This document shows, piece by piece, positions 779 to 64,000 of a DNA stretch of 64,000 bases. The DNA lies in NCBI GenBank assembly GCA_964016885.1, contig OZ024746.1, positions 38,006,001 to 38,070,000 of the forward strand, read 5' to 3'. The position numbers and the translations under genes were made by a program. Under the pieces are notes generated by a model that worked only from the letters and a program-made list of their open reading frames with translations, had not been told where the DNA came from and did no database searches. The DNA is from Eledone cirrhosa (Eukaryota). Positions within the stretch are counted from its first letter, which is position 1. Every line of letters begins with the position of its first letter.

Positions 779-3700
779 CTATAGTCTGATGTAGAGTGAA
801 GGCCCATTCACACGGGCCATTCTCGCCACTTTCACCCATCTTTCATAGAAACGGCTGGGGTGCAGCACCTCTCTCTCCATCCTGATCCTTCTTCCGAAAT
901 GATATCGGAAGAAACGGACCAGTTGTTGGCCAGAGAGAAAGGTGCCCGACCTCAGTCCTTTCAGACGCGTCCACCATACAACCTCTTTCGCCATGGCTAT
1001 TACGCACAGAAACACCGCCTCTGCTTCATCTTTGAAGGGGGGAGGCGGCTTGATCATTACAATAGACTCGGTGGTCAACCGGATCGGTCCCACCCTTGAC
1101 AGCAGTTGTTCGACATAGCCCCACAGATCGGCTACGCCCGAGCAGTGTACTAATGCGTGTGCAACGGTTTCCTCGTCGCACACGCATCTGGGACAGATCT
1201 TTTTGGCGGGGTCCCTACCCGGGCGCCCGTGTCTGTAGAGCCTTTCTCGAACGGGTAAAGCCCCTCGGTAGCACTGCCAGGCCAGGGACTTCTGGAAGTT
1301 GTCCATAGGTCCCGGGCTGAATGTCCTACCGAACAGGCTGGCCAGTTCGTCCTCCTCCATGTCTAGGGCTTCTCCGAGGGCGTCGTCGAACCTGCTGCGT
1401 ACCAGCCCTCTATAGAATGTTGCGGTGGAGTCTCCACTGATAACCGGATCCGCCTGCCAGAGGGCGGTGAGCGCCTGGGCACACTCAGTGTGCCAGGCGC
1501 CCAGTTTTCTCGGTCTTTGCTTGACCCAGGATTGCAGCTCGGTGAGTGAGACGAGTCTGGGAAAGGTTCGTCTCACAAACGAGGCCCACACCGGTTGTCC
1601 GGTGAGGAATACGTAGAGGTGCCGTAGCCTTAATGCGTGTTTACGCATCATTAGCCACGGCATCCCCAGCCCTCCTTTCGAAGGGTGTTGACAGCAGATG
1701 GATCTCCTCACCATAGGAGCCCGCCTCTTCCAAAGGAATTGGAAGAGCGCGCGCTCCATCTTGGTGAGGGTTTCCCTTGGGCAGGGCACTACGGTCAGGC
1801 GGTAGTAGATGACGGACGCTATGTAGGTGTTCGCCACCTCCGCCCGGCCTTTCAGGGATAGTTTGCAACTGGCCCACTTCTGGGTCAGTGCAAACACCCT
1901 GTTCGTAACCTCCGCCCAGTTTTTCTCCACCTGGAGGTCCGGTCCGAACCAGACCCCGAGCAACTTCACCGGGCCCTCCGTCCAGCGTCCGACGACGCTA
2001 TCGGAGGGCATCGGTCTGCCCCTCCACGTGCCGAGTTGCAAACCGATCGACTTGTCCCGGTTCAGCTTAGCCCCTGTGAACTTTTCGTACTCCTCCAGTA
2101 AGGTGCCGACCGCCTCGATTTCGGAGGCCGTCGACACCATTACTGTCACGTCATCGGCGTAGGCCGACACCGCTTTCCGCAATCCCGGTTCCAAAGGGAT
2201 GCCCTGCAACAACTCCAACTTCCGCAGTAGTGGCTCGAGAGTCAACACATACAGAAGGGAGGAGAGAGGGCACCCTTGTCGGATGGACCGCGCGATTTTG
2301 AACGGCTCCGAGAGGTAGCCGTTCACCTTGACCCTAGAGCAGATGCGGCTGCTGTGCATAGCAGTGATCCAGCCCCTGAAAACGGGTCCGAAGCCTGCCG
2401 CCGCTAGCACCGCATCCAGGTAACCATGGTCGACCCTATCGAACGCCTTAGATTGATCCAAGTTGATCAGAGCCCCACCAAAGCCGGGTTCGTTCCCAAC
2501 CCTCTCTATGATGTATCGCATGAGGTGGAGGTTGTCATGGATGGACCTGGACGGGATAGCGCATGTCTGCGCATCTCCCACCAGGTTGCCCACGACAAGC
2601 GCCAACCTCTTTGCTAGCACCTTGGCCAAAATCTGTAACTCTGTATTTAGCAGTGTTATGGGCCTGAAGTTACTTATTTCGTCCCCCTTGTTCTCGTCCT
2701 TCCTCACTAGCGTGACTACGCCCTTGGTCACAGTACAGGGAATTCTCCCGTTCTGTTGCCAGTTGCAGTAGACCGCCTCGAGGAGATCGGGGAACAAGTC
2801 CGGCATAGCTAGATATAATTCGTAAGGAAGACCATCGAGACCCGGGGATTTGCGTTTGCCGCATTGGCTCAGCACGTCCTCTATCTCAGCGGCCGAAATC
2901 GGCTCTTCGCAGGACTTCGCCTCCCTGTCCGAGAGGCGCGGCAGGCCGTCGAGGTATGGACCGAAGTCCACGTTCCCAACCGGCTCCCCGCCCCTCCCGA
3001 ACAGTCGGGCAAAGTGCCTTTGAAAGGCCTCACACATCTGCTTAGGCTCAAGAATCGCCCGTCCATCCAGGTCTCGCAAAGACCGGATGGTGGATTTAGT
3101 TCCACTGTTGGCCTCTGTCACGCGGGCCCAGCTAACAGCTTTGGTCCCCTCGTTCCCTAGAGCACGTATTTTACTTCGGACAACGCAGCCTTCGTGCTTC
3201 GCGTCGAAAAACTGGCTCAAAGCCGTTCTCGACGCTAGCACTCTGGCCACGTCGCCGCTTCTAATTGCCTCTTCTACTCTATCTACTAGCTCCCTTTCCT
3301 TCCTATTCCTATCCGCAGCTAGAACCTTACTAAATTCTATCGAGACTACTCTAATCTCTCTCTTTAGAGATACCCACCACCTGCTGTTGACGATCGCTCC
3401 AGTCAACCGTTCCTTAACTAACGTACTAATCCGATTCCTGTAGGCTCTACTTGCCGGCAAGGACAAGTTGAGCTTCCAGTAACCGGGGCCCTGTCTATGA
3501 GTTCTGTCAAGGTTGACCATGCAGGTCACTAATTTGTGGTCTGAATAGCCAACAATGCGCATTTTTGGACAACTTAAAAAGTCCTTATCCTTAATTCTAA
3601 CTAAGAACCTATCTAGGTACGACCTAGATGATCCGCTACGATTTGCCCAAGTCCAGGTTGGCGCAGTCGGAAAATCTAGTCGATATCTATCGGCCAGGTC

Positions 3701-4216
3701 AAATCGACCGATTAACCCTTTGAGCCTATTACACCCCTCTCTATCGGGGCAGGCCCCTACGTAGTCCCAGCGTGCATCTAGGATACCATTCCAGTCCCCC
3801 ACTAATAGCAAGGAGCGGGACGTCCCTAGAAAAGTCTCCAGACGATGGAAGAAGTCCGGCCGCATTGACCCGAAAGGGCCGTAGGCGGCTACCAACCTAA
3901 ACGCTCCGCCTTTACCACTGCCAAGGTCCAGAACCACTAGTCGACCCTCCGGGTCCAAATGTACCATCTGTGTTGCGAGACCCAGATGTTTTTGCAGCAG
4001 AACGACAACTCCACCCCCACCTCCGGGCTGACAGAGAGATGCGTGCATCTCAAAGTCATCAAAGGTGGGGGCCAGCTGTCGCACGTTGCTGATCCGGGCC
4101 TCGCAAATAACCATCACATCTATACGTTGTGACCTGAGGTCATTTAGAAGCATTGCTTGCTTCCAAGTTGAGCCCAGGCCACGCGCATTTAAACAGCCTA
4201 CTCTTAGCATAGCCAT
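779..4216 (-). CDS. LINE ORF2: apurinic-like endonuclease + reverse transcriptase + C-terminal zinc finger (Tx1/L1 group)
   Basis: Uninterrupted ORF; first ATG at 4216 (the ORF track starts at GTG 4240). APE motifs LNARGL, GDWN, YLDRFLV, SDH; GPGYWKLN linker; RT motifs KSPGLDGL, FRPITLLN, LDQSKAFDRVDH, RQGCPLS, YADD; GGLG; CPRC..ETVAHALVHC. Confidence 0.95.
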   Translation of the reverse strand: MAMLRVGCLNARGLGSTWKQAMLLNDLRSQRIDVMVICEARISNVRQLAPTFDDFEMHASLCQPGGGGGVVVLLQKHLGLATQMVHLDPEGRLVVLDLGSGKGGAFRLVAAYGPFGSMRPDFFHRLETFLGTSRSLLLVGDWNGILDARWDYVGACPDREGCNRLKGLIGRFDLADRYRLDFPTAPTWTWANRSGSSRSYLDRFLVRIKDKDFLSCPKMRIVGYSDHKLVTCMVNLDRTHRQGPGYWKLNLSLPASRAYRNRISTLVKERLTGAIVNSRWWVSLKREIRVVSIEFSKVLAADRNRKERELVDRVEEAIRSGDVARVLASRTALSQFFDAKHEGCVVRSKIRALGNEGTKAVSWARVTEANSGTKSTIRSLRDLDGRAILEPKQMCEAFQRHFARLFGRGGEPVGNVDFGPYLDGLPRLSDREAKSCEEPISAAEIEDVLSQCGKRKSPGLDGLPYELYLAMPDLFPDLLEAVYCNWQQNGRIPCTVTKGVVTLVRKDENKGDEISNFRPITLLNTELQILAKVLAKRLALVVGNLVGDAQTCAIPSRSIHDNLHLMRYIIERVGNEPGFGGALINLDQSKAFDRVDHGYLDAVLAAAGFGPVFRGWITAMHSSRICSRVKVNGYLSEPFKIARSIRQGCPLSSLLYVLTLEPLLRKLELLQGIPLEPGLRKAVSAYADDVTVMVSTASEIEAVGTLLEEYEKFTGAKLNRDKSIGLQLGTWRGRPMPSDSVVGRWTEGPVKLLGVWFGPDLQVEKNWAEVTNRVFALTQKWASCKLSLKGRAEVANTYIASVIYYRLTVVPCPRETLTKMERALFQFLWKRRAPMVRRSICCQHPSKGGLGMPWLMMRKHALRLRHLYVFLTGQPVWASFVRRTFPRLVSLTELQSWVKQRPRKLGAWHTECAQALTALWQADPVISGDSTATFYRGLVRSRFDDALGEALDMEEDELASLFGRTFSPGPMDNFQKSLAWQCYRGALPVRERLYRHGRPGRDPAKKICPRCVCDEETVAHALVHCSGVADLWGYVEQLLSRVGPIRLTTESIVMIKPPPPFKDEAEAVFLCVIAMAKEVVWWTRLKGLRSGTFLSGQQLVRFFRYHFGRRIRMEREVLHPSRFYERWVKVARMARVNGPSLYIRL

Positions 4217-4240
4217 GTTGGTGGTGAAGAGAAAAGGCAC

Positions 4241-5596
4241 TTACCTCTCTGCGTCCCGGGTATCGGGCTGCACAATTTCCATTAGGGTGGGGGATGGGTT
4301 GTTGGGTGGGGTGGTGGTTTGTGGAAGTGTGGGGGCATCAGTGTGTTGTGTGGTTGGGGAGCTTGGAGTTGTGAGGGTGTTTGGGGAGGGGGTGGGATAG
4401 TTTTTTAGGAGGACGCGGTTAATGGGCCCGACGCAGGGGGGACCCACGTCCTCTTTAAAATTGTTTTTTAAAGTTTTATAGGTGTCCTGTGGGGCCTTAA
4501 TCATTTTGAGGTGGGGGAAATCCCCTGCCTGGGTGAAGTTAGGCCCTTGTGTTTTTATTAGATTGTTGTTGTACACAATGTTTAACAGTTTTTTGTTTCT
4601 TGTATTTATGTATGTGTATGCATGTTTTTGTTTTTGTGTGGTGTTTTTTGTTTGCTGTTGTGAGCTCTTTTGTGTTGGTGTCAGTGTTATGTTTTGGGGA
4701 GGGTTTTTTTTCATTTGTGTGTCTGAGGTGTGTTTTCTTTTTTTTCTTTTGATTGTGTGGAAGTGCTCCTCCTCGTCTGACGACGAACTAGGGTCATCTT
4801 CCGCGTTGGAGGGGAGGGGTATATTTTCGGGTTGTGTTTGCGGTACGGGTGTTTTGGAAATTGTTTTTGTTTTTTGAGTGGAGGGGATGGGTTGGACATT
4901 GTTTTGTTTTGGTTTGAGCTGTGGTGGTTGTTTTTGTAGTGGTAGTTGTGGTGATTGTGTTGGTTGTGCAGCTGTTGGTGGTGTAGGCAGGATTGGGGTT
5001 TTCTTATTAAGTTGGGGACAGACAGCCCTCAGGTGACCTCTGGTTCCGCAGAGGTAACACGAGGGCCGTCTACCCTCAACGGTAATGTTGATGAAGGTTA
5101 GATCATCCAGTATGACGCGTTCAGGGATCTGGGCGATCCTTTCGGGCCTCATTTGAACTACAAGTTCGAGGCTCGTTCCACTGAACGCGTCACCCGATGC
5201 CTTTCCCATGGACACCAGCATGTCATCCTCCAGGTCCAGAAAACCTGTCAAAACCCACCATATGTCCATAATCGGCAGGATGGTGTGGATTTTTATTTTT
5301 TGTGTTCTTCTACCCATGTACGTAGGGTAGAAGGTGTATGCGGTGGATGTGATTGGTTTGATGGACAGTTTCACTGCTGTGTCCCTGTCCTTCATGAGAA
5401 TGGATAGACTCCCGTAGAGTCTATCCTTCTGAATGAAGGTGATGTCCTTCATGACGTCTTTTAAAACCAGCTCTATCTCGCTCTGTGATGGTTGAGCTGG
5501 TTTTTTACTTTTGTTCGAGATTGTCCTAAACATGACCGTGTTTAGGAGTCTCTGGCTTTTTAGTTCCGGGGGGGGAATGGATTGTGAATGAACCAT
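4241..5596 (-). CDS. LINE ORF1 (gag-like, CCHC zinc knuckle), main part
   Basis: 451-aa ORF with CYLCGTRGHLRAVC (CX2CX4HX4C) preceded by ITVEGRRP, then a P/Q/T/K-rich low-complexity tail. Lies directly upstream of ORF2. Confidence 0.85.
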   Translation of the reverse strand: MVHSQSIPPPELKSQRLLNTVMFRTISNKSKKPAQPSQSEIELVLKDVMKDITFIQKDRLYGSLSILMKDRDTAVKLSIKPITSTAYTFYPTYMGRRTQKIKIHTILPIMDIWWVLTGFLDLEDDMLVSMGKASGDAFSGTSLELVVQMRPERIAQIPERVILDDLTFINITVEGRRPSCYLCGTRGHLRAVCPQLNKKTPILPTPPTAAQPTQSPQLPLQKQPPQLKPKQNNVQPIPSTQKTKTISKTPVPQTQPENIPLPSNAEDDPSSSSDEEEHFHTIKRKKRKHTSDTQMKKNPPQNITLTPTQKSSQQQTKNTTQKQKHAYTYINTRNKKLLNIVYNNNLIKTQGPNFTQAGDFPHLKMIKAPQDTYKTLKNNFKEDVGPPCVGPINRVLLKNYPTPSPNTLTTPSSPTTQHTDAPTLPQTTTPPNNPSPTLMEIVQPDTRDAER

Positions 5597-6020
5597 TTTC
5601 CCCGTACACTATATATTTTTTCGCATCCGCCAGTAGCTCCTTCGCTTTTGTTATATCTACTGGCAGATAGTCGAGGGTTTTCCTTGTCGTCTCGGCGAAG
5701 GAGAAATTTTGTTTGTTTGTGTTGTTGTTGTCGTTGGTGGTGTTGTTGTTATCATTGTTGTTGTTGTCACCGTTATTGGTCTTGTTGTTGTTATTGTTAT
5801 TGGTCTTGTTTTCGTCCGTCGCATTGTTGTTGTTGCTGTTGCCGCTGGTTCTTTGAGTTGTTGCCATGGCAACGTCAAGTTGTCGGTTAACAGGTGGAGA
5901 GAATTCTTCCTCTGGCTGACCTTTCTTCTTGACCTCTGCTACTGTGACAGTGGCAGGGGGAAGCTGTAAGTTCATCTTCCCCTTTCCTCCTTCGAATTTT
6001 GGTGAAGAAGCTTCGGCCAT
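5526..6020 (-). CDS. Probable N-terminal part of ORF1, separated by a +1 frameshift
   Basis: ATG-initiated 164-aa Asn-rich ORF overlapping the next ORF by 71 nt. Removing one base from the C8 run (G8 at 5568-5575 on +) fuses the two frames. Confidence 0.65.
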   Translation of the reverse strand: MAEASSPKFEGGKGKMNLQLPPATVTVAEVKKKGQPEEEFSPPVNRQLDVAMATTQRTSGNSNNNNATDENKTNNNNNNKTNNGDNNNNDNNNTTNDNNNTNKQNFSFAETTRKTLDYLPVDITKAKELLADAKKYIVYGENGSFTIHSPPGTKKPETPKHGHV

Positions 6021-22650: not shown

Positions 22651-23460
22651 TAGTTAGAGAAGCAAAAAATTGCTTATTGTGATCCAGATTTTGGTTAAGA
22701 AAGCCAGTTTCATGGATGGTTTCAACGTACGGTTAGGGGTAACTCCACAAGTTTGTAAGAATTCCGTTCAATCTCGGAGTATAAAGTATATAAGAGAAAA
22801 CACAGGTAAGCATTAAGAGAAGGATTTTATCCAGGTATTTACGACCGTTTCATTGGTAAGTGCAACCTTATATTGCTATACTGCAAATAGCAGCCACTCA
22901 ATTATAATTGTTGTTCACAGTCCAAATTTTCAAAATAGTAAGTTACTCTTGAAATAATTCTTAATATATAGAGAAAAACATTTATTTGGAATTGTACTTA
23001 CTAGTATAGAGAGAGAGGAATCAGGAGGTGAGGGGACAGACGCAATAGTATATATAGAGAGAGAGGAAGAGGGAAGAGGTAGGAAGTAGAATGACAAACT
23101 GAGATGGAGGGAGGGGTAGAGGTGGAAGGATTCCTTGGTCAGTTTTGATAGCAGACTTCATGTCGTGAGTGTGGTGAGTTAAAAAGAATTAAATCTATGC
23201 TATTCCGTCTGTCCCCTCACCTCCTGATTCCTCTCTCTCTATACTATTAAATACAATTCCAAATAAATGTTTTTCTCTATATATTAAGAATTATTTCAAG
23301 AGTAACTTACTATTTTGAAAATTTGGACTGTGAACAACAATTATAATTGAGTGGCTGCTATTTGCAGTATAGCAATATAAGGTTGCACTTACCATTGAAA
23401 CGGTCGTAAATACCTGGATAAAATCCTTCTCTTAATGCTTACCTGTGTTTTCTCTTTTCT
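22651..23460. mobile_element. Non-coding inverted insertion of PLE family B 3' ends between (TA)n tracts
   Basis: Arms ~22790-23042 and ~23206-23457 are reverse complements. The sequence matches the 3' UTR (51410-51815) downstream of the GIY-YIG fragment at 50668-51074. Confidence 0.8.
23311..23412 (+). ncRNA. Type I hammerhead ribozyme with U3-A8 core and long stem II (family B)
   Basis: tatt-TTGAAAA-tttgg...ccatt-GAAA-cggtcg-TA-aata. Other copies at 22836-22937 (-), 27893-27966 (-) and 51665-51766 (+, GAAG). Confidence 0.6.
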
Positions 23461-23477
23461 AAATATATATATATATC

Positions 23478-35582: not shown

Positions 35583-36502
35583 TAATTACTTTATTAGCCA
35601 CGCAGAGCTCACATTGAGGAAATATTAAAGATTGTATATGACGATGTAGTGGGTTTTTTGTGAGAAATAAAATTTATAACAGAGACTAATAAAATAAACG
35701 TTTAAAAACAAACATAATATATTCACCAAAGGTGAGGAGACTCTAATTGTCTCTCGTGCAGCACTCTCACAAAAGCCCTGTTCACCCTGTCCGCTGGGCC
35801 AAAGTTCTCTCACCCAGTTTTTCTACTCCAATCTACAGACGTATGCTCAGAGCAGGCCCATTCACACGGACCATGCTTGCTACTCCCACCCTAATGAGTC
35901 AAAGAATCATAACTTATTTTATGTGTAACGCGCGTTTCGCGATTGATCAGCTCAAGAGACGATCCGTATTGATAGGGCCCAACCCTACAATCAATAGCCT
36001 CTGAGGCTCATGGATACTTAATTAGGCGAGATACAGCTTTAAATTGTCATTTCTAATTCACTTGCGATGTTCCGTTTTTATTTGTTTTGATTTGTTGGGG
36101 GGGGGGGGGGGGGAGAATAGAATAGAGAAGAGAAGAGGTAGAAAAGAAAGGACACAAGAAATGAAAAAGAAAGGAATGTTGATTGAGCCGAGAATGAAGA
36201 AGGAGAAACGGAATGGGACATTCAACACAAACCACAACTCTGTCCGGGAGGCAGCCTCACTTTCAAAGGTTCGTGACATACATTTCTTCGTTAACATGCA
36301 CTACATCTGCACTGCACACCTGTATAAGCTAAGACAATCTATACTCCACCAAACAAAAAATAACCCCCTCGGCAGAGGCACAAAGTTCACTTCCCCCCAC
36401 CCCGCCCCATGACATCCCCCAAACAACATTAATTATAATTATTACTATTTTTAATTTTATTTTCAAGTTTATATTTATTTTTATACATTATAAAGCTTTT
36501 AC

Positions 36503-37630
36503 CATTATTATCACTACTATCAGCATTATCACTAGTATCATCATTATCACTACTATCATCATTATCACTACTATCATCATTATCATTACTATCATTATCA
36601 CTACTATCATCATTATCATTACTATCATCATTATCACTACTATCACCATTATCACTACTATCATCATTATCATTACTATCATCATTATCACTACTATCAT
36701 CATTATCACTACTATCATCATTATCATTACTATCATTATCACTACTATCATCATTATCATTACTATCATCATTATCACTACTATCACCATTATCACTACT
36801 ATCATCATTATCATTACTATCATCATTATCACTACTATCATCATTATCACTACTATCATCATTATCATTACTATCATTATCACTACTATCATCATTATCA
36901 TTACTATCATCATTATCACTACTATCACCATTATCACTACTATCATCATTATCACTACTATCATCATTATCACTACTATCATCATTATCACTACTATCAT
37001 CATTATCACTACTATCATCATTATCACTACTATCATCATTATCACTACTATCATCATTATCACTACTATCATCATTATCATTACTATCATCATTATCACT
37101 ACTATCATCATTATCACTACTATCATCATTATCATTACTATCATTATCATTACTATCAGCATTATCATTACTATCATCATTATCACTACTATCACCATTA
37201 TCACTACTATCATCATTATCACTACTATCATCATTATCACTACTATCATCATTATCACTACTATCATCATTATCACTACTATCATCATTATCACTACTAT
37301 CATCATTATCACTACTATCATCATTATCATTACTATCATCATTATCACTACTATCATCATTATCACTACTATCAGCATTATCACAACTATCATCATTATC
37401 ACTACTATCATCATTATCACTACTATCATCATTATCACTACTATCATCATTATCACTACTATCATCATTATCATTACTATCATCATTATCACTACTATCA
37501 TCATTATCACTACTATCAGCATTATCACAACTATCATCATTATCACTACTATCATCATTATCATTACTATCATCATTATCACTACTATCATCATTATCAC
37601 TACTATCATCATTATCATTACTATCATCAT
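36503..37630. repeat. 18-bp minisatellite (atcattatcactactatc)n
   Basis: About 60 tandem units with point variants and occasional 15-bp units. Confidence 0.95.
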
Positions 37631-38804
37631 TATTATGATTATCATTGATATTATTAGTAATGTCTTTATAATTATTGTTATTATAATAAAGTTCTAAACT
37701 TTATCGATAGAATTACGATATTTACACGTATGTATATGTCCATGCGTGTGTGCCTGTGTCATGGCATGTGTTTCCGTGTCCATGGTTGTGCATGCACATC
37801 TTGCACGCGCACATGCACGTATGTGTCTGTGTGTATATATAAGTATGTCTTTCTGTGTGCATGTGAGGCTCAGTGCTTGTATATATATGTGTGTGTGTTT
37901 GTATATAAGTAGGGGCATATATGTATGTGTGTGCATATATATAATATATATATATATATACACATATATGTGTGACTGCATGTGTAGGTGCGTGTGTGTC
38001 TGCATGTAGGGTGAGTCTATGTGCTTATATATGTGTGTATGTAGGTTGATGTACATATATGTACATATATGTGAACGTAGTATTCCCTCATATAAACATG
38101 TGCACTATTTTTTTGTATAAAATTGTAATAGTTCAATTGCAGCAACCACTGCAATATCATAAATTTGAGTAATATATTTCCTTGCAGTAATTTGTTTATT
38201 ATCTCCCTTCCTATAGTGTGACGTTTCTGCTTCCACAGAATATTACGATTATTACAACATGATTATAGCATTCTACTTGTAATAACCAGATCAATATATT
38301 CCCCGACCCATATTGTCATCTTGTCACTATTATTATTACATTCTATTATTATATATTACAATTTATTAAAATTTAATTAATACATTATCCCACACTTCTA
38401 ATCTCAAGTCAATTCATAATCAATATTCTTTCTTCTTTTCTTCATTTTAATTTTTCCTCAAACTTTCAATGTCCATATCCTCACTCATTTGATTTTCCAT
38501 TCTTCCCACAATTAGTGGTTCATCGTGTTTCCCTTATCAGCATTTTCGTAGTCTACATCTTCCTCAGTTGATTCATTTTCATTGTGAACCCTATGTTTCT
38601 CACTTGCCACATTCCCTTCACGTAAGTTACCTTCAGTATAAACATTTATATGTTGTACTTCAATTTGAAGATCCTCCAATTTATTGAGTATTGGCTTATC
38701 ATTATTAACATGGCTTTGAATAAACAACATCAGTAACTCACCCGTGCATCTCACAGAATGGATTCTGCGTTTTATCCATGTAATAATGTGGGGAGGGGGG
38801 GCGT

Positions 38805-45285: not shown

Positions 45286-45581
45286 TATAAAGAAAAAGAG
45301 ATGAAATCGAAAATGCAACTGGAGTCTTATTTTTTTTTTAAATATATATATTTATTTGGTTCCTTTACCGATTTCGCAGTTCTTCTGCTTTTCAAAAGGT
45401 GAGTTGAGATGGTGGGTCTGTGGTTTTTCTCACATCTGATGTGAGAAAAACCACAGACCCTCCATCTCAACTCACCTTTTGAAAAGCAGAAGAACTGCGA
45501 AACCGGTAAAGGAACCAAATAAATATATATATTTAAAAAAAAAATAAGACTCCAGTTGCATTTTCGATTTCATCTCTTTTT

Positions 45582-45588
<7 letters not shown>
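45286..45588. repeat. Near-perfect 303-bp palindrome (family E) between (TA)n tracts, with a one-sided tail at 45224-45285
   Basis: Centre cacatc-t-gatgtg at 45437; only about 2 mismatches seen. Confidence 0.9.
45475..45512 (+). ncRNA. Minimal type I hammerhead ribozyme with U3-A8 core
   Basis: cctt-TTGAAAA-gcag-aagaa-ctgc-GAAA-ccgg-TA-aagg. Stems I and II are perfect, stem III is the palindrome ACCGGT, cleavage triplet GUA. Inverse copy at 45362-45399. Confidence 0.8.
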
Positions 45589-49403: not shown

Positions 49404-49645
49404 ACTATATTTATAAAACCATATTTATTATATTATATATATTTCAAGGGTCCCAAAACTTTCATCAGATAACTATCCAGGAAAAACTTGAGCCGTTCAG
49501 ATCTTCTTCCTTGTTATGTCAATATTTATAAAACAAACTTTGTATTTTATCTGATGAGGGGGTACAAAACTTTTGGTACCCTTGAAATATATATAACAGA
49601 ATAAATATGGTTTCATAAATATAGTTTCCATTTATTTAATATCAT
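49404..49645. mobile_element. Short inverted insertion of Naiad family A-related 3' ends with HHR
   Basis: Plus arm: tattttat-CTGATGA-gggggtac..gtaccctt-GAAA-tatata-TA-acagaata (49543-49603), followed by the same terminus as 62700-62740. The minus arm has a shortened stem II. Confidence 0.75.
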
Positions 49646-49854
49646 TGTATATACACATATGTATATATATATATTGTTATACTTGAGGAGGCTCATATTA
49701 TAATAATATTGCCAGAAATAATAACAGAACACACTCACTGTATGGTTGGTTTTCGCTTCTATATATTTTATATCTCCACAGTTAATACATTTGGTCCTCA
49801 ATGTTTCTCATTGACTGACCAATGGTCAAATTTACAGATATAAATACCTGATTC

Positions 49855-50586
49855 GTAAAAGTGTGTAAGCACACATAGCTAGGTAGGTAACTAAATAAAG
49901 TTTAACTAGAACTTCAAAAATAGATACCTTATAAAATGATTAATCTTCCTAGTATATATTCCATTAAAGAAATATATTTCACCAATTAATCGATTGGTAA
50001 ACGACAGTAGCCAGATCCTGGATTTTCAACAAGGAAGTGGTCCAACCATCTGTGTTTACGCATCAAATTCAAATCAGCAACTGGCTAGCAACACGTGCTG
50101 TATTTACTAAAAATACACACATCATACCAGCTTCGTCCCGGTGGCGTGAATAGGGTTATCGACAACTAGAAACAGCAGTCAATTCATTTCAACTGAGTTA
50201 GCTCTACAATTAAGGGGCCGTATTTATATATATCCAAAATTCCTTGTTGAAAATCCAGTATCTGGCTACTGTCGTTTACCAATCGATTAATTGGTGAAAT
50301 ATATTTCTTTAATGGAATATGAACAAGGAAGATTAATCATTTTATAAGGTATCTATTTTTGAAGTTCTAGTTAAACTTTATTTAGTTACCTACCTAGCTA
50401 TGTGTGCTTACACACTTTTACAAATTATCCCATGTCATTGTTTCATATGTTTATTTATGTCAATCAATTTCTAGTTGATATAAAATGCTCGGATCTATTC
50501 ATTAGAATCTTAGAGCATATTTTACGGGTGATATGACACCCTTAATTTAATCTAATTTAGTTTAATTTAATTTATCTTAATTTTGT
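49855..50586. mobile_element. Fold-back element (family D) with a U3-A8 hammerhead in each arm
   Basis: Arms 49855-50036 and 50240-50421. Arm consensus ccttg-TTGAAAA-..-GAAA-tatatttc-tttaat-ggaatata-TA-caagg (49948-50034 -, 50242-50328 +). Confidence 0.75.
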
Positions 50587-50667
50587 ATATATATATATAT
50601 ATATATATAGTTAGAGAAGCAAAAAATTGTTTATTGTGATCCAGTTTTTTGTTAAGAAAGCCAGTTT

Positions 50668-51074
50668 CATGTCCTTTACATAATGAATGTATGCAGTCTA
50701 ACCTGGTTTACCAATGCACAGTGGAATCAGACAACCAGAAATGGTATTACTTCGGAGCACCTGGGAATACATTTAAAGCCCGTTGGTATACACACCGTTA
50801 CGCAATGACACATTTTCGGCACCGTTATGTAACTACCCTTGCAAACAAGACCTGGCAACTGAGGGAAAGTAACCATCAATACACCCTGAAGTGGAAAAAA
50901 TTATCGAATGCACCCCCATATCGGAGTGGTATGAGAAGCTGTCGATTATGCGACCTTGAGCTGTTCCACATCTTAAGTTCGAAGAATAAGTTACTCAACA
51001 ATAAAATCGAAAGATCAATTTATTGTAACCATAGACTCAAAGAGAAGTTTTCGCACTACAAATCGAACCCTTAA
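50668..51074 (+). pseudogene. 5'-truncated Naiad-type PLE GIY-YIG endonuclease (family B); 3' UTR extends to ~51816
   Basis: CPLHNECMQSNLVY..YYFG..FKARWYTH..TTLANKTWQL..CRLCDLE..LLN..CNH aligns with the C-terminus of the 59618 ORF. Preceded by an inverted 65-bp tail (50608-50672). Confidence 0.85.
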
Positions 51075-51351: not shown

Positions 51352-51813
51352 CTTTTTATATCCTCCCCTCTCTCTCCCTCTCTATCCATCCCTCCCACTA
51401 TGATCAATTTAATTCTCTTTAACTCACTACACTCCACGACATGAAGTCTGCTATCAAAACTGACCAAAGAATCTTTCCACCTCTACCCCTCCCTCCATCT
51501 CAGTTTGTCATTCTACTTCCTACCTCTTCCCCCTTCCTCTCTCTCTCTATACTATTCCGTCTGTCCCCTCACCTCCTGATTCCTCTCTCTCTCTATAATA
51601 GTAAATACAATTCCAAATAAATGTTTTTCTCTATATATTAAGAATTATTTCAAGAGTAACTTACTATTTTGAAAATTTGGACTGTGAACAACGATTATAA
51701 TTGAGTGGCTGCTATTTGCAGTATAGCAATATAAGGTTGCACTTACCAATGAAGCGATTGTAAATACCTGGATAAAATCCTTATCTTAATGCTTACCTGT
51801 GTTTTATCTTTTA

Positions 51814-51900
<87 letters not shown>

Positions 51901-51967
51901 CAAATAACGAAACGAAATTAAATTTTGTTTCGTTTGTAACTCACTTTTGTATGACTGACGCTTAAAC

Positions 51968-52392
51968 AATTAAGTTAAGAATGTACATCCACATATGTAT
52001 ACTGAAATACTAGTATGCATATGAATACACACACGTGTACATATGTAGATGTACCGAGTTTTTCACTGGTCACTTTACTGTGAGTGTCCAGCTATTCTGT
52101 ATGTAAACACACAGACAAACCGGTTTTTAGAGTCATACTGGTTTTTGAGGAAACACCTTTCCTCTATTCTCCAGAAAGCCAGACAAGCTTTCTGGAGAAT
52201 AGAGGAAAGGTGTTTCCTCAAAAACCAGTATGACTCTAAAAACCGGTTTGTCTGTGTGTTTACATACAGAATAGCTGGACACTCACAGTAAAGTGACCAG
52301 TGAAAAACTCGGTACATCTACATATGTACACGTGTGTGTATTCATATGCATACTAGTATTTCAGTATACATATGTGGATGTACATTCTTAAC

Positions 52393-52398
<6 letters not shown>
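51968..52398. repeat. Apparently perfect 431-bp palindrome with a 7-nt loop, ending in (TA)n
   Basis: Mirror ORFs 52049-52291 (+) and 52075-52317 (-) are identical except at the loop; centre at 52183. Confidence 0.95.
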
Positions 52399-52448
<50 letters not shown>

Positions 52449-56236: not shown

Positions 56237-56287
<51 letters not shown>

Positions 56288-56295
<8 letters not shown>

Positions 56296-56628
56296 AGATC
56301 AAAAGATGGTTAAAGGAGTTCCATATATTTTATTATGCGCATTTCAAAAACAAACATCATCAAGCAATAATATTTGTGTTTTCATCAGATAAAACAGGAG
56401 AACATGATATGAAGGCTAAAAAACACTTGTTGATAGTGCAGTTTTAAATCAACATATGATATGTTGATTTAAAACTGCACTATCAACAAGTGTTTTTTAG
56501 CCTTCATATCATGTTCTCCTGTTTTATCTGATGAAAACACAAATATTATTGCTTGATGATGTTTGTTTTTGAAATGCGCATAATAAAATATATGGAACTC
56601 CTTTAACCATCTGTTGATCTTATATTAT
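56288..56628. repeat. 341-bp near-perfect palindrome (family F 3' ends) adjoining (TA)n
   Basis: Centre caacatat-g-atatgttg; one mismatch seen. The left arm is essentially identical to 62882-63053. Confidence 0.95.
56522..56588 (+). ncRNA. Type I hammerhead ribozyme (family F)
   Basis: ttttat-CTGATGA-aaacacaaatattatt-gctt-gatgatgtttgttttt-GAAA-tgcgca-TA-ataaaa; stem III is the palindrome ATGCGCAT. Inverse copies at 56328-56394 and 62922-62988. Confidence 0.85.
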
Positions 56629-57147
56629 GCATACTCCAGTCCCACAAACTGTAGAGTGCTTCTTATCCGATATCTGCATTGCATACAGATGACCTCCTCC
56701 ATTGTGTCGGTAGTGGTAGTGGTGTTAAGGGGTCAGCTGGCAGCTCAGATTTAGAGTGCTCCTGGCATGTTCAGAAATGCGTGTGTGTTACAACTAATAT
56801 CAACATTTGAAAAATATTAACTGAAGTAGAAAACCTGTGTGTCAGGATCGAGACATGTAAAGAATTACAATTCTTATACTATCATTGAGTGGTGCGTTTA
56901 AGAGCAAATGAGAAAAAAGTGGTGTGTAAAACACCAAAAACTTTAGTGTCAAATTCCGGAAATGCAAACGACTACAGCTCTTATTTCTGCATAAATTATA
57001 TATTCGTGTATGTCCAGGCACATCGTTGCAGGTACACACGCACAAAGCCAGGCTCAGGTGCATTCCATGTGTGTATATATATATATACACACACACACAC
57101 ACATACACACATTATATACACACACATATATATATGCACACATACAT

Positions 57148-57389: not shown

Positions 57390-58097
57390 TTATTGTCCAT
57401 ATAGTTTGAGGAAGGTCTCTGCCCTAAGGTGTCTACATGTACCGAAGTAGTGGGTCCTGAGGTTTATTAGGCTGCTTCCACCGGTGAGTATCTCGAGGGT
57501 ATCGCTAAGAAATAGTTTGCAGATGACAGATCCCCCTCTACCAGGTGATACTTTCCTGATTTTGGACCAGGCCAGAGAGTACGGGGTCCTGTCCAGCTTG
57601 AGCTTCCATATCAGTTCTGAAAGAGCCGTACTTTTCCTTTTGTCCTCCCTATTAAAGGAATGGTGATGGTTATACGATCGGTCTTTGATGCTTGTTGATG
57701 TGGCCCCTATGTAAAGGTGACCAGAGTTGGGGGGGGGGACTCTAATCCGTATATTAAGTTCTTCCTTAGTCATTCGTTGCTAAGGGGGCATAATGTGGGG
57801 GTTCTGCAGTCGAAGGAGGTGGTCGACCCTGGGTTCCTAATGAGGAGTTCCCGTTGCGTATTAAAGGGTGGTCTTCTCCTGGGCCCGGTGGGGGAGGGGT
57901 CTTTGGGTCTGTTTAGGTTCCCAGGGTGGGTACCAGATCAAACCTTCCTTCCCTCCACATGGCTCTGCTGGGTGCTTAAATTGCCAGATTCTGGTTGTGT
58001 GTAATTTCTAAGTCTACCTCTATTGATGCTAGCTATGTGCTGGGCTATGTTGCGCGTGGTAGATTACGAGACCTTCACAGTGTGTCTGTTGAAGACC
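57390..58097 (-). pseudogene. Decayed Naiad-type PLE fragment (linker + GIY-YIG)
   Basis: VFNRHTVKVS*STTRNIAQHI..DCRTPTLCPLSNE*LRKNLIY, then a frameshift to LYIGATSTSIKDRSYNHHHSF..STALSELIWKLK..LINLRT..CRH. Colinear with the 59618 ORF. Confidence 0.85.
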
Positions 58098-58150
58098 TTT
58101 TTTTTATTTTATATATATATATATATATATATATGATATATATATATATA

Positions 58151-58247
<97 letters not shown>

Positions 58248-59617
58248 ATTAAATAAATGGAAACTATATTTATTTCATTATATATATTTCGGGGATATCA
58301 TATTAACAATATGCTATGCCTTCCTCAGACAAAATACAATATAAACAGTTTTATAGATAAATAGATTCGACATACCGTTATAACACCGACTTGCATTTGA
58401 AGAGGTTAAGCTGGCAGTGAAAAAATGTCATACAGAGAGAAAGAAAGAGAGAAAAAAAGAAAGAAAGACAGAAAACGAAGAAAAGGAAGAAAAAGAAGAA
58501 ATGCATGGAACAAAATATAGAGATGGAAAGATAAATAAAGAGAAGAACTTCATGTAAAGAAACCGAAAGAGATATATATATATAGAGAGAGAGGAAACAG
58601 AGATAGATACATATATATATAGAAAATTAGGTAGTGGGAGGTCATTTTGAGTAAATGTATCAATGATACATTTATTTATTTATTTATTTATTTAGCTCTA
58701 GTATTAATGTAAGGGAGATATATAGAGAGAGAACAAATATAGAGAGAGAAAAAATAGCGCGAGAAAAAATTTAAAAATAGCCAGACATATTCGAGGCGTA
58801 AAAACCCTATGTCTTAATGTATTAGAATTCATAAAACTTCCACTATATTGTAAATATCAGTATTCCTGAATGAGACAAATATCCATAGTGTGTGAAAATT
58901 AATTATCTTATGTTTAGTTTTTTAAAAAAAATTCATATGTTTATGTTATAGCTACAAACATCCATGTGAATCCACATTATCAACTCTGCAAACTCTAAAT
59001 TCACAGAAAACATTCTCAATGTGGTATAAAAATTTGAATATACATATATGTGTATTATTATTCATGTCTTTACTCTACAAGATTATCTATCAAGGAGAAA
59101 TAGAGAGCAGATTTCAATATACTAATAAAAATATATATCAGAAACAAAACTAAAAATAAAAAGATAACAATAATAATAATAAGTAACAATAAAATAGAAA
59201 ACTAAAAAAATATTACGAAAGAATATTACATATTAAAAATATTACATACTAAAAATATTACGTATTAAAAATTATTACGTATTAAAAAATTTACATATTA
59301 AAGATATTAAAAATAAAAATAAAAATAAAAATAAAAAATAAAAAATATTATAAAATACTACAATAATAAAAAATAAAAATAAACCACAAAGATCAACCCT
59401 TCAAAATTAATTGACAATATATTGCCAAGTTCATTATAAGACAAAGCCAAAAATTATCTATCAAATCACATCTAGCAAAGATCATTTCAAAAAGTTGATG
59501 ATGTCCAAATTGGTCTACATGTGTTCTTATATTTAATATAGAAGTTTATCTAGTGTAAGGTTTATTCAAAATATTTGGAGCATCAGCTTTTAGGGTAGCT
59601 TAATTTTTCATGACAGG

Positions 59618-61183
59618 GTGATACAGCAAATTAAGAACTTGGATTGTGTATCTAACCTGAGCTTGTGGAAGGGAACTGGAGAGGTTGTTGAGTGGTTTAG
59701 GCAAATTAAATATAACAATAATAATAGGTTTATTCAACTTGATATAGCTAACTATTATTCTTCTATTACCCCTAGTCTACTAAATAAGGCACTAAATTAC
59801 GCATTCAAACATACTGACCTAACTAGCAAAGAAATGCATATTATATTATCGGCTAGGAAAACTTTGATAGAATTTAATGACAAATTATGGACCAGAGCAG
59901 ATAGAGATAGCAATTTTGACATAACTATGGGATCTTCCGACTCAGCTCAGGTAACTGACCTTGTGGGCTTATTTTTAATCAATTCGCTACATAGGAAGAT
60001 ACCTGGTACTACCGGAGGTTTATATAGGGATGACATGCTTTTACTTATTAATAATAATAACCCTGAACTAAATAGAAAATATAAACAAATTACAAAATTT
60101 TTTAATTACTTTAACCTTAAAATAGAAATTGAGAACAACCATAGAATAGTCAATTTCCTAGATATAACATTAAATCTCAACACATGTCTCCACTATCCTT
60201 TTCACAAGTTGAATGAAAACTTAAACTATGTCAACTTTAACTCTAACCACCCCAGATCTGTCAAAAACACTATAGTAAACTCAGTTCAAAAACGTATCTC
60301 TAGGATCTCGTCGAATAGAAAGATTTTCGACGAAAAGGCCCAATACTATAATGAAGCATTAGCTAGGGCAGGATATGCTGATAAGATTGTGTACATAGAT
60401 AATGATAGACAAACTAAACAAAGTAACAACTTTTTTAATTACGGCAACAACATTAACAACTATATTAGAAAGCATTACAATAATTCCAAAGGCCAAAAAA
60501 GAAATAGAACTAGGAACATAATTTGGTTTGCCCCCCCTTTCTCACTAAACATTAACACCCACATCGCTAAATTATTTTTCAAAGCTCTTGATAATAGCTT
60601 CCCTAGAACACATAGGTATCACTCACTTTTCAATAGGCATACAATTAAATTAACCTACTCATCCACCAAAAATTTAGCACAAAATATTAGTAGAATAAAT
60701 AATAGGAACTTAAAACCTAGTGATAATAGCATAAATAATATACAAGTTAACAAATGTAACTGTAGAGATAGATCTAAATGTCCGTTAAATAACAACTGCT
60801 TAGTTAAAAATATAGTATACAATTGTAATGTTAATACTGACTCTAATTCTTTTAACTACGTCGGTTCCACATCGACGGAATTTAAACTTCGCTATAATAA
60901 CCACAAGAATTCTTTCACAGATCCAAGTAAAAAATCTTCAACGGCACTATCAGGCGTACTCTGGCAACTTAAGCTAGATAACGTTAGATATTCGACGGCT
61001 TGGTATATAGTCTCAAGAGGGATTCCTTTTAATTCATCCTCTGAGACATGTGACCTCTGCGCAGAGGAGATATTCTTTATACTAAAATCTAAAAATTCCC
61101 TTAATCTACGGACAAATTTATTCAGTTGTTGCAAACATAGATTAATCTCAACGTTTAAATATAAATTTAAATTTAAAATGTAG
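59618..61183 (+). CDS. PLE reverse transcriptase + GIY-YIG endonuclease, 5'-truncated but uninterrupted
   Basis: RT motifs FIQLDIANYYSSI, FDITMGSSDS, GLYRDD, NFLDITL, SNHP; IIWFAPPFS; CNC..CPL...C..IVY..YVG..FKLRYNNH; CDLC..E..LN.R..CCKH. The ORF opens at GTG right after the inversion junction, so the true N-terminus is missing. Confidence 0.92.
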   Translation: MIQQIKNLDCVSNLSLWKGTGEVVEWFRQIKYNNNNRFIQLDIANYYSSITPSLLNKALNYAFKHTDLTSKEMHIILSARKTLIEFNDKLWTRADRDSNFDITMGSSDSAQVTDLVGLFLINSLHRKIPGTTGGLYRDDMLLLINNNNPELNRKYKQITKFFNYFNLKIEIENNHRIVNFLDITLNLNTCLHYPFHKLNENLNYVNFNSNHPRSVKNTIVNSVQKRISRISSNRKIFDEKAQYYNEALARAGYADKIVYIDNDRQTKQSNNFFNYGNNINNYIRKHYNNSKGQKRNRTRNIIWFAPPFSLNINTHIAKLFFKALDNSFPRTHRYHSLFNRHTIKLTYSSTKNLAQNISRINNRNLKPSDNSINNIQVNKCNCRDRSKCPLNNNCLVKNIVYNCNVNTDSNSFNYVGSTSTEFKLRYNNHKNSFTDPSKKSSTALSGVLWQLKLDNVRYSTAWYIVSRGIPFNSSSETCDLCAEEIFFILKSKNSLNLRTNLFSCCKHRLISTFKYKFKFKM

Positions 61184-62633
61184 TATATTTAGTTTGATTT
61201 ATATTTATATGGGAAACTAGCCGATAAATTTTTGATTCCTAAATTTTTGATTCCTTCTTTTTATTCTTTTTTTATTGTTTATTTTTATTTTATTTTTATT
61301 TAAACATTCCTCATGAAAAATTAAGCTACCCTAAAAGCTGATGCTCCAAATATTTTGAATAAACCTTACACTAGATAAACTTCTATATTAAATATAAGAA
61401 CACATGTAGACCAATTTGGACATCATAAACTTTTTGAAATGATCTTTGCTAGATGTGATTTGATAGATAATTTTTGGCTTTGTCTTATAATGAACTTGGC
61501 AATATATTGTCAATTAATTTTGAAGGGTTGATCTTTGTGGTTTATTTTTATTTTTTATTATTGTAGTATTTTATAATATTTTTTATTTTTTATTTTTATT
61601 TTTATTTTTATTTTTATTTTTATTTTTATTTTTATTTTTATTTTTATTTTTATTTTTAATATCTTTAATATGTAAATTTTTTAATACGTAATATTTTTTA
61701 ATACGTAATATTTTTTAGTATGTAATATTTTTAATATGTAATATTCTTTCGTAATATTTTTTTAGTTTTCTATTTTATTATTACTTATTATTATTATTGT
61801 TATCTTTTTATTTTTAGTTTTGTTTCTGATATATATTTTTATTAGTATATTGAAATCTGCTCTCTATTTCTCCTTGATAGATAATCTTGTAGAGTAAAGA
61901 CATGAATAATAATACACATATATGTATATTCAAATTTTTATACCACATTGAGAATGTTTTCCGTGAACTTAGAGTTTGCAGAGTTGATAATGCGGATTCA
62001 CATGGATGTTTGTAGCTATAACATAAACATATGAATTTTTTTAAAAAAACTAAACATAAGATAATTAATTTTCACACACTATGGATACTTGTCTCATTCA
62101 GGAATACTGATATTTACAATATAGTGGATGTTTTATAAATACTAATACATTAAAACATAGGGTTTTTACGCCTCGCATATATCTGGTTATTTTTAAATTT
62201 TTTCTCTCGCTATATTTTTTTCTCTCTCTATATTTTTTCTCTCTCGATATATCTCCCTTACATTAATACTAGAGCTAAATAAATAAATAAATAAATAAAT
62301 GTATCATTGATACATTTACTCAAAATGACCTCCCACTACCTAATTTTCTATATATATATGTATCTATCTCTATTTCCTCTCTCTCTATATATATATATCT
62401 CTTTCGGTTTCTTTACATGAAGTTCTTCTCTTTATCTATCTTTCCATCTCTATATTTTGTTCCATGCATTTCTTCTTTTTCTTCCTTTTCTTCGTTTTCT
62501 GTCTTTCTTTCTTTTTTTCTCTCTTTCTTTCTCTCTGTATGAAATTTTTTCACTGCCAGCTTAACCTCTTCAAATGCAAGTCGGTGTTATAACGGTATGT
62601 CGAATCTATTTATCTATAAAACTGTTTATATTG

Positions 62634-62699
62634 TATTTTGTCTGAGGAAGGCATAGCATATTGTTAATATGATATCCCCGAAATATATATAATGAAATA
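62634..62699 (+). ncRNA. Type I hammerhead ribozyme at the 3' end of the Naiad element
   Basis: tattttgt-CTGAGGA-aggcatagcatatt-gtt-aatatgatatcccc-GAAA-tatata-TA-atgaaata. Inverse copy at 58271-58336. Confidence 0.75.
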
Positions 62700-62827
62700 A
62701 ATATGGTTTTATAAATATAGTTTCCATTTATTTAATATTGTAAATATACTCCAAATATTTGTCGAGTGCTTTTATATCAGTTATAAATATTTACTAGTTG
62801 TAACCCAACAATTTTAAATATAACTTT

Positions 62828-62881
<54 letters not shown>

Positions 62882-62889
<8 letters not shown>

Positions 62890-64000
62890 AGATCAAAAGA
62901 TGGTTAAAGGAGTTCCATATATTTTATTATGCGCATTTCAAAAACAAACATCATCAAGCAATAATATTTGTGTTTTCATCAGATAAAACAGGAGAACATG
63001 ATATGAAGGCTAAAAAAACACTTGTTGATAGTGCAGTTTTAAATCAACATATGAAAAGTGGTTTTAGATTGATGTGTGATATTGGGAAAAATATTTTATT
63101 TAGAGAGGGGGGGTAAAGGATGAAAAGGGAAGGAGATGAGAGGGAGAGATGGGTGATACAGAGAAAGAGATAGTTTTTATAACTGAGAGGAGATATATTT
63201 TTTATATAGAGGGGTTGAAAACCGTTGGAAGATACTGTATAAATTAAAAATTTTGAAAATTAACGAAGGTAGGATATGTGCGAGGAAAAAATATTTTATT
63301 TAGGGAGGGGGGGGGGTGCAAAGGATGAAAAAAAAAAGGGGGGAGGAGATGAGAGTGAAGGTGGAGAGGGAGAGATGGGTGATAGAGAGAAAGAGATAGT
63401 TTTATAACTGAGAAAAAGATATATTGTTTTAATATAGAGAGGTTGGGAACCGTTGGAAGATAATGTATAAATTAAAGGAATTTGAAAATTAACGAAGGGA
63501 AATTATGTATGAAGATAGAGAGAAAAAAATAATAATTGTGGGTGAATATTCTAACGTCAAAAGAAGAAATGTATGTATTGTGGCAATTTCAAAATTAGCG
63601 AAGAGAAAAATGTTAAGGTTTATGTGTAGAAGGATTTGAGAAAAATAATGTAAAGTTAAAGTTTGTATATTGAATTCATATGTATTAATAATGAGTTCGT
63701 TGATGGGGAGAAAAAAATAATAATAAATTAAGGATGAAATTGAGATTAAAAAGATTTATGATAGAGAGAAAAAATAATAATGATTGCGGATGAATATTCA
63801 AAATGTCAAAAACAAATGTTATTGTTTTACGAGAAGATAGAATGAGGGTAATGAGTAAACGAGTATTATAGAGTGTATAATGCCCTTTAAAGTAAGGTAG
63901 ATGGGTATATTTTAAAGAGGTGTATGTATATGTGCCTTTGAGAAAAGATTCTAAATTGATAAAGAATTGAATATTAACTGTATACTTTGTGAAAAGTTCT
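62882..64000 (-). mobile_element. 3' end and long 3' UTR of another HHR-bearing element (family F), continuing beyond the window
   Basis: Starts at (TA)n; HHR at 62922-62988 (-); GA-rich plus strand with an internal ~200-bp duplication (63087-63268 and 63287-63498). Confidence 0.7.

Follow-up and report, generated by a model that had tools for sequence, protein, structure and literature searches.

Head-to-head arms of a 5′-truncated Hydra-clade Penelope-like element in Eledone cirrhosa and their likely origin by twin priming

The insertion considered here occupies positions 58242-62831 of a 64,000-nt stretch of the Eledone cirrhosa genome (assembly GCA_964016885.1, contig OZ024746.1, positions 38,006,001 to 38,070,000, forward strand). 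This whole stretch is called the window, and positions given below without a contig refer to it. By its motifs, the insertion is almost certainly a Penelope-like element (PLE) of the Hydra clade. It is a dead copy, and both of its inverted arms were quite probably made in a single event, by the copying of one sense RNA onto the two ends of a cut in a (TA)n tract. The locus itself is ordinary for a PLE, and its interest lies in its family, a young, high-copy Hydra-clade PLE. The family is new, whereas its clade and its insertion layout are known already.

Anatomy of the element

The left arm (58242-59613, 1,372 nt) matches 61311-62742 in reverse complement at 98% identity (1,356 matches and 22 mismatches over 1,378 aligned bases, with gaps of 14, 3, 1 and 42 nt). 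The two arms enclose an open frame at 59594-61183, 529 codons from stop to stop, 523 of which derive from the element and correspond to D215-M737 of the family protein. A first-pass annotation of the window, made from the letters alone, had described inverted arms, a long 3′ untranslated region (UTR), a hammerhead motif in each arm and an open frame for a reverse transcriptase (RT) and endonuclease (EN); all of this anatomy is present in the sequence, except that the frame had been counted as 521 codons. The 3′ UTR (1,559 nt) is 77% A+T, the 89-nt tail is found at the right end only, and (TA)n lies on both sides. Because the start codon and the 214 N-terminal residues are gone, the insertion is, as judged from its sequence, a dead 5′-truncated copy, unable to supply enzyme. 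The remaining frame has 10 residue differences from the full-length copy L044. The copy belongs mostly to one subfamily, with a seven-site tract of another haplotype in the right arm. The features are as follows.

58110-58241, no strand: (TA)n target tract, left flank; the target-site duplication is unreadable
58242-59613 (-): inverted 5′-truncated arm with the tail-less "short" end (end class S, locus L068); copy of 61311-62742
58271-58336 (-): left copy of the type I hammerhead motif, with a 14-nt deletion immediately beyond its edge
58418 (-): putative mirror image of the transcription start, mapped from 62552 through the arm alignment; it faces away from the open reading frame (ORF)
59611-59613, no strand: head-to-head junction of the inverted arm and the ORF at codon 215, with a 3-nt microhomology (TGA)
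59612-61183 (+): 5′-truncated ORF, residues 215-737, from RT motif A to the thumb, Asn-rich linker, CxCX5C linker and C-terminal GIY-YIG endonuclease
61184-62742 (+): 3′ UTR/pseudo-long terminal repeat (pLTR) region, 1,559 nt; the right arm is 61311-62742
62129-62187 (+): right-arm tract with the alleles of another subfamily at 7 sites (as in L177 and L179), by gene conversion or template switch
62552 (+): stop point of family stubs (A of TCACT), the likely capped transcription start
62634-62699 (+): type I hammerhead motif in the published format (PMC8557442), with CUGAGGA, long stem II, GAAA and loop-less palindromic stem III; predicted cut after 62691
62742 (+): "short" end site S (after ATTGTA), likely the first RT initiation site
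62743-62831 (+): 89-nt tail, identical to the start of the element's 5′ leader, ending at the "long" site L, likely the second RT initiation site
62832-62883, no strand: (TA)n right flank, common to the element and the adjoining sister Hydra-type insertion
62884-64000 (-): neighbour outside the element, the inverted arm of sister-family insertion L270, which runs about 4.7 kb past the window end and has its own frameshifted ORF

Protein and clade

In full-length copies there is a single ORF of 737 aa, similar in length to its homologs, behind a short, non-coding 5′ leader; the RT motifs lie at residues 258-355 and the endonuclease at 596-722. The Hydra clade is defined by an RWK motif replacing GxKF/Y, by DKT, CxCX5C, CxxC and CxH motifs and by the lack of a CCHH finger (Craig et al. 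2021, PMC8557442). The family protein (P0001) has the RWK-type motif RWR at 37-39 (K in 30 and R in 22 of 58 homologs), DKT at 118-120 (DK[TS] in 58/58), the linker C596-C598-C604, the pair C694-C697 and C721-x-H723, and these motifs are conserved in the alignment of 58 homologs. A CCHH finger is not present, with no Cys between Y617 and Y630 in the query and two Cys there in only 2/58 homologs. The residues Y617, Y630, G632, R641, H645, E700 and N712, which include the catalytic R, H, E and N, are invariant in 58/58 aligned homologs. Pfam returned no match for the window ORF, and the GIY-YIG assignment rests on motifs. The best named homolog is from Argonauta hians.

The predicted structure of the full-length protein (pLDDT 89.8) has telomerase reverse transcriptase (TERT) 3du5 as its best PDB match; the top three Foldseek matches are all TERTs (E 9e-10 to 2e-8), at a modest and not exclusive TM of about 0.35. 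A PDB sequence search with the 58-sequence profile gave only weak group II/retron-type RT matches (E about 0.8). Residues 478-510 of P0001 (window about 60400-60500) form an Asn-rich, low-confidence linker from the RT thumb to the endonuclease, which is much longer in the sister family described below and recalls the inserts of rotifer Penelopes.

The Penelope-like identity proposed in the first-pass annotation is thus borne out by an RT and a GIY-YIG endonuclease with Hydra-clade motifs, while its label "Naiad" has to be given up. In Naiads the endonuclease is N-terminal, the motif is DKA and canonical hammerheads are lacking (PMC8557442), whereas the present family has its endonuclease C-terminal to the RT, DKT rather than DKA, no CCHH finger and a hammerhead motif. 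Compared by eye, the protein is collinear with Hydra-1_Obim and unlike Naiad_Ovul.

The hammerhead core CTGAGGA lies at 62642 (+) and 58328 (-), one per arm, and the CTGA-N-GA core is kept in 289/294 family matches, with variation mainly at the free position 7. Since Rfam did not find a hammerhead family at any threshold, either in the whole window or in 62400-62830, and since the motif is not the minimum-free-energy fold of the monomer (z +0.9), the hammerhead assignment is a motif-level call. Stem I is weak and stem III loop-less, and the predicted self-cleavage would need a dimer. Further cores at 49468 (-), 49551 (+) and 45011 (+), with similar flanks and a different stem II, mark ends of other related families.

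The family and its end rule

The search covered the species' own 3.0-Gb genome and gave 4,300 candidates, the best 40 of which were scored; these 40 are 98-100% identical over the ORF. The whole ORF of about 737 codons from ATG is present in 13/38 fetched loci, and the tail has 3,462 exact matches genome-wide against 0 for the control. Owing to the long UTR, the unit length is about 3.9 kb. Tandems of pLTRs, an inverted 5′-truncated copy and a one-ended tail are all found in the family, and nearly all of the listed outer ends abut (TA)n.

From 102 loci picked by ORF similarity or by a subfamily 31-mer, 72 head-to-head pairs were obtained. Their inner truncation points are variable and meet head to head, in many cases at a short microhomology (1-12 nt are frequent); in the 69 pairs measured, the length of the shorter arm lies between 74 and 3,648 nt. 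The wide variation of the boundaries from copy to copy agrees with the first-pass view that the arms are not true terminal inverted repeats (TIRs), which would share their boundaries in all copies. At the same time, the layout is less unusual than the remark that it "looks like a TIR transposon" had implied: an inverted 5′-truncated copy next to the 5′ end, with a tail at one end, has been described for PLEs (PMC8557442, Fig. 2 legend), Penelope-13_HM included.

The outer ends obey a simple rule, in which one end of a pair is S and the other is L. The script assigned 70/72 pairs to S/L and inspection added L051, giving 71/72; the exception, L031 (G000:C4:268667700-268677699), has two L ends and identical flanks and looks like either a larger inverted duplication or an assembly fold-back. 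A less biased set of 60 loci was drawn from successive tail matches along contig C1, excluding loci already in the first set; an adjacent inverted arm was found at 42 of them, 40 of these arms ending at S and 2 continuing as internal pLTRs. In 20 held-out loci, 12/12 visible partner ends were S. The tail-less S arm is the longer one in 20/69 pairs; such an arm was therefore not copied from the cDNA of the other, and two primings are needed. In vitro, Poseidon PAc uses two RT start sites that bound its tail, cuts and extends both strands and is predicted to be a dimer (PMC11167929). The S-to-L region (62700-62835) folds into hairpins slightly better than shuffled sequences (z -1.8, 10 of 200), and such a fold could position both priming sites.

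Stop point of the short arms

The lengths of the two arms in a pair are coupled: both are ≤202 nt in 23/40 pairs, both are longer in 14, and only 3 are mixed (Fisher p 3e-8). Arms that stop 186-197 nt from S make up 21/49 of those with a short partner and 1/31 of those with a long one. Exactly at A62552 (ACTG), within the initiator-like TCACT, begin 25 arms, and where the junction at this start is non-homologous the next base is G in 5/9. In the sister family, the base is G in 13/17 such arms against C in the genome, or in 9/10 after removal of three single-base junctions and one possibly templated G. Several stubs (L075, L274, L276 and L277) have their own extra G on both arms. Reverse transcriptases are known to add C opposite a cap, and the base equivalent to 62552 is likely a capped transcription start. 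A splice-acceptor reading of the region was rejected, with the stops falling 8 nt before AG. A TCACT initiator-like motif also occurs in rotifer pLTRs (PMC3846280), and a literature search at the level of titles and abstract beginnings found no published cap-derived G at PLE junctions.

A probable single RNA for both arms

Mate arms resemble one another: in 68/69 pairs the mate is closer than the median other arm (0.9% vs 2.6%). A more telling pair belongs to L184 (G000:C1:52534700-52539500), a unique copy whose next best match is 91%. Of the 166 substitutions that separate it from its nearest relative, 157 are sense-strand A>G. Between the two arms of L184 there are 0 mismatches over 1,144 aligned nt, edits included. 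Over 2 kb, changed sites account for about 23% of the adenosines (139/612), compared with 1/161 upstream and 0/31 in the tail. The base G is depleted 5′ of the changed sites (0.08 vs 0.28 for U, p 3e-4), and by 3′ base the rate is highest before G (0.35), with 0.24 before A. Since the changes are A>G on the sense strand and since upstream G depletion is the preference of ADAR, as reported for hyper-edited repeat RNA (Porath et al. 2017, PMC5625713), L184 was likely copied from an ADAR-hyperedited RNA. Its unedited tail fits pairing with the tail-less inverted arm in a read-through hairpin, although antisense RNA from another copy would serve as well.

One 127-nt contig (depth 3) matches the edited stretch of L184 exactly, with 13 A>G sites, which is weak support that possibly comes from the same sample. 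L055, whose short arm fits the edit boundary, was considered as the source of the edited RNA and was rejected as a member of a different subfamily. An arm of L175 (G000:C1:35910420-35915220) shows 12 A>G changes of its own and a single T>C; this may be light editing and is not significant over 373 tests. A search at the same level of titles and abstract beginnings found no published PLE copies with genomically fixed ADAR edits.

The first-pass annotation had also suggested that a read-through transcript of the window copy would form a 1.37-kb double-stranded RNA (dsRNA) stem, a potential self-silencing trigger. The likely hyperedited source of L184 lends support to this idea for the family, not for the window copy. 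Both putative promoters of the window copy face outward, and it has no start codon; its stem would form only if transcription were driven by a promoter elsewhere.

Origin of the inverted arms

Twin priming appears a fairly likely mechanism for these insertions. The enzyme of an intact copy, probably as a dimer, would cut both strands in (TA)n; one DNA end would prime at S, and the second would use the same RNA but prime at L, which lies 89 nt further 3′. The two cDNAs would stop at different points (3.1 kb vs 1.4 kb for the window copy), anneal by their 3′ ends and be filled in. With a capped 5′ leader as the template, both arms would stop at or before 62552 and leave palindromic stubs of about 370 nt plus the tail. 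Long arms would need the 3′ copy, and arms longer than the unit would call for a circular template or for jumping between templates. Transcripts that read through two-armed copies, or else antisense RNA, would then give dsRNA that ADAR edits, and edited RNA would sometimes be re-inserted. We lean, by a little, toward a general formulation in which PLEs insert by twin priming, with the two ends of one double-strand cut, two fixed sites and a single sense RNA; capped run-off would yield the small palindromes, an endless template (a ribozyme circle or end-to-end jumping) the long arms and pLTRs, and ADAR-edited hairpin transcripts would sometimes be rewritten as heritable mutations.

Several observations weigh against this account. 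The stop site at 62552 is also a near-palindrome favouring annealing, and 14/25 stops use microhomology; the control set for the extra G in the family of the window element includes false ends. The step from stubs to long arms needs an additional mechanism, as 16/18 internal pLTRs run through the putative start, and long products require circles, jumps or longer read-through templates. The predicted hammerhead cut is no truncation hotspot, 0/102 arms stopping there. Mates could also owe their similarity to gene conversion between arms, and the window copy has its seven-site foreign tract in one arm. L184 is the sole hyperedited case in 173 loci, with no family-wide A>G excess outside it (128 A>G vs 165 T>C), and its L arm is the longer one, leaving room for DNA fold-back in that event. 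The start site, the cap, the cleavage and the dsRNA are all read from DNA.

The last points lead to the most serious alternative, in which a single cDNA is made and the second arm arises by DNA fold-back or is homogenised later by gene conversion, so that the primings need not share an RNA. It accounts for the identical arms of L184, for the conversion-like tract in the window copy and for the frequent junction microhomologies, but it is unlikely in view of the 20/69 pairs with a longer tail-less arm, where neither arm is copyable from the other, of the separate extra G on both arms in four stubs and of the coupling of arm lengths. Self-priming on an antisense template, argued in print for head-to-head arms and junction palindromes (PMC3846280), can draw on the near-palindromes that are common at junctions in this family. 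It is nevertheless improbable: in L184 the A>G changes lie on the sense strand in both arms with no T>C set, the extra G is located at sense 5′ ends, and many stops at 62552 make no use of the palindrome. Nor did any of 373 segments show a T>C burst; the largest excess, in a single diverged 222-nt piece, was 6 T>C against 0 A>G.

The remaining alternatives are much weaker. An assembly or library fold-back artefact might be suspected from L031, with its two tailed ends and identical flanks, and from the fact that no public contig bridges the junction and contigs break at 59613, which is uninformative for a repeat. The arms of the window copy, however, differ at 22 bases and 4 gaps, the ends and flanks also differ, and about 120 other insertions, as well as the sister family, follow the same end rule, which makes an artefact very improbable. 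A TIR-bounded element moving whole, like a DNA transposon but with an RT, would explain the ORF flanked by long inverted repeats and is hardly credible: it is refuted by the variable boundaries and differing inner junctions, the ends are asymmetric, there is RT-EN and no transposase, and the 40 closest ORF copies lack the junction of the window copy. Copying of one sense RNA from two primed DNA ends is our preferred account of the arms.

Palindromes and neighbouring elements

The first-pass annotation regarded the element as the coding-size version of small palindromes in the window and as the best candidate for their mobilising enzyme. The former idea holds in that the family of the window element does produce its own small palindromic stubs of the same build. 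The latter is not sustained: the copy is 5′-truncated, the window palindromes have no real similarity to the element DNA (best E 1e-4, over an AT-rich 53 nt), and the one palindrome that was traced, 56283-56633, is a stub of a sister family whose own RT-EN ORF has 46-47% identity. The two arms of this stub each contain a hammerhead, stop at the same base and are separated by a single G/C. The sister-family hammerhead has 1,479 exact genome matches by pattern search (a DNA search with the arm of the stub gave no match), and the sister family follows the same end rule. Its insertion L270 (G000:C6:38068800-38075000) is roughly 5.9 kb long, begins at about 62884, contains an internal pLTR and a frameshifted ORF, and shares the (TA)n tract of the element. 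Because the family of the palindrome 56283-56633 has its own RT-EN ORF and that of the palindrome 22787-23461 lies behind a different endonuclease fragment, cross-mobilisation of the window palindromes is not needed.

The latter fragment is of the GIY-YIG type, at 50640-51074 (+), with 34% identity to P0001, and is followed at 51420-51822 by a 3′ end 95% identical to the palindrome 22787-23461; this is probably another autonomous family. Directly left of the (TA)n flank of the element, 57390-57779 (-) and 58007-58096 (-) represent another Hydra-type endonuclease fragment (43% to P0001). The palindromes 45286-45588, 49851-50425 and 51963-52403 adjoin (TA)n, with no hammerhead core in the scan and no similarity to the family of the element. 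Elsewhere in the window, 779-5608 (-) contains an intact-looking element that we take, from its motifs, to be a long interspersed nuclear element (LINE), with a 1,153-codon endonuclease-RT frame preceded by a 455-codon frame, and 36333-37697 contains a 1.3-kb array of 9-nt tandem repeats.

Comparison with known systems

The PLE literature, in the parts covered here, leaves open how tandem and inverted structures form and from which strand, and the present family speaks to that. The S/L rule, the coupled arm lengths with the extra G and the edit barcode shared by both arms lead to precise expectations: RT should initiate at 62742 and 62831, transcription should start at 62552 and the template should be sense RNA. 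The family is active, with intact ORFs in 13/38 loci, and lends itself to such tests in the in vitro system already published. Under twin priming, each insertion would build its own dsRNA trigger and, in a lineage with heavy RNA editing, retrotransposition would be linked to inherited A-to-G change.

Hydra PLEs such as Hydra-1_Obim (PMC8557442) share with the element the domain order, the RWK-type, DKT, CxCX5C, CxxC and CxH motifs, the lack of CCHH, the 3′ hammerhead and the (TA)n target. The layout of the element is that of Penelope-13_HM, a Hydra family with a 5′-truncated inverted copy at the 5′ end and a hammerhead on each strand (PMC8557442). The hammerhead and protein differ by eye from those of Hydra-1_Obim, which marks a separate family. 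Relative to published Hydra families, as summarised in PMC8557442, the unit is about 3.9 kb vs "generally <3 kb" (a variant rather than a diagnostic trait), the tail is 89 nt vs 30-40, the UTR reaches 1.56 kb and there are thousands of young copies. Naiads resemble the element in (TA)n targeting, inverted 5′-truncated copies, a tail and a length of 3.4-4.4 kb, and depart from it, besides the endonuclease position, the DKA motif and the hammerhead, in their CxC motif and CCHH finger (PMC8557442).

The Adineta vaga Penelopes (Arkhipova et al. 2013, PMC3846280) also have an inverted pLTR, a one-ended tail, junction palindromes, microhomology joins, TCACT and Asn-rich linker inserts; that study favours antisense self-priming, whereas the marks in the present family point to a sense, capped template. 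In the editing survey (PMC5625713), as in L184, G is depleted upstream of edited sites, Penelope RNA is heavily edited in a lizard, and octopus shows very high hyper-editing and many genomic hairpins. The edits there are in RNA reads, with an invertebrate preference for a 3′ A, whereas those of L184 are fixed in a genomic copy with the highest rate before G.

An in vitro parallel is the Anolis element Poseidon PAc (Frangieh et al. 2024, PMC11167929), with its two internal RT start sites bounding the tail, cutting and extension of both strands, use of uncleaved RNA and a predicted dimer. The PAc sites lie 111-118 nt into the ORF, whereas S and L of the element precede the ATG and are separated by 89 nt. 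For PAc, the part of PMC11167929 covered here does not show a separate site for each DNA end, a common RNA template or a stop at the cap.

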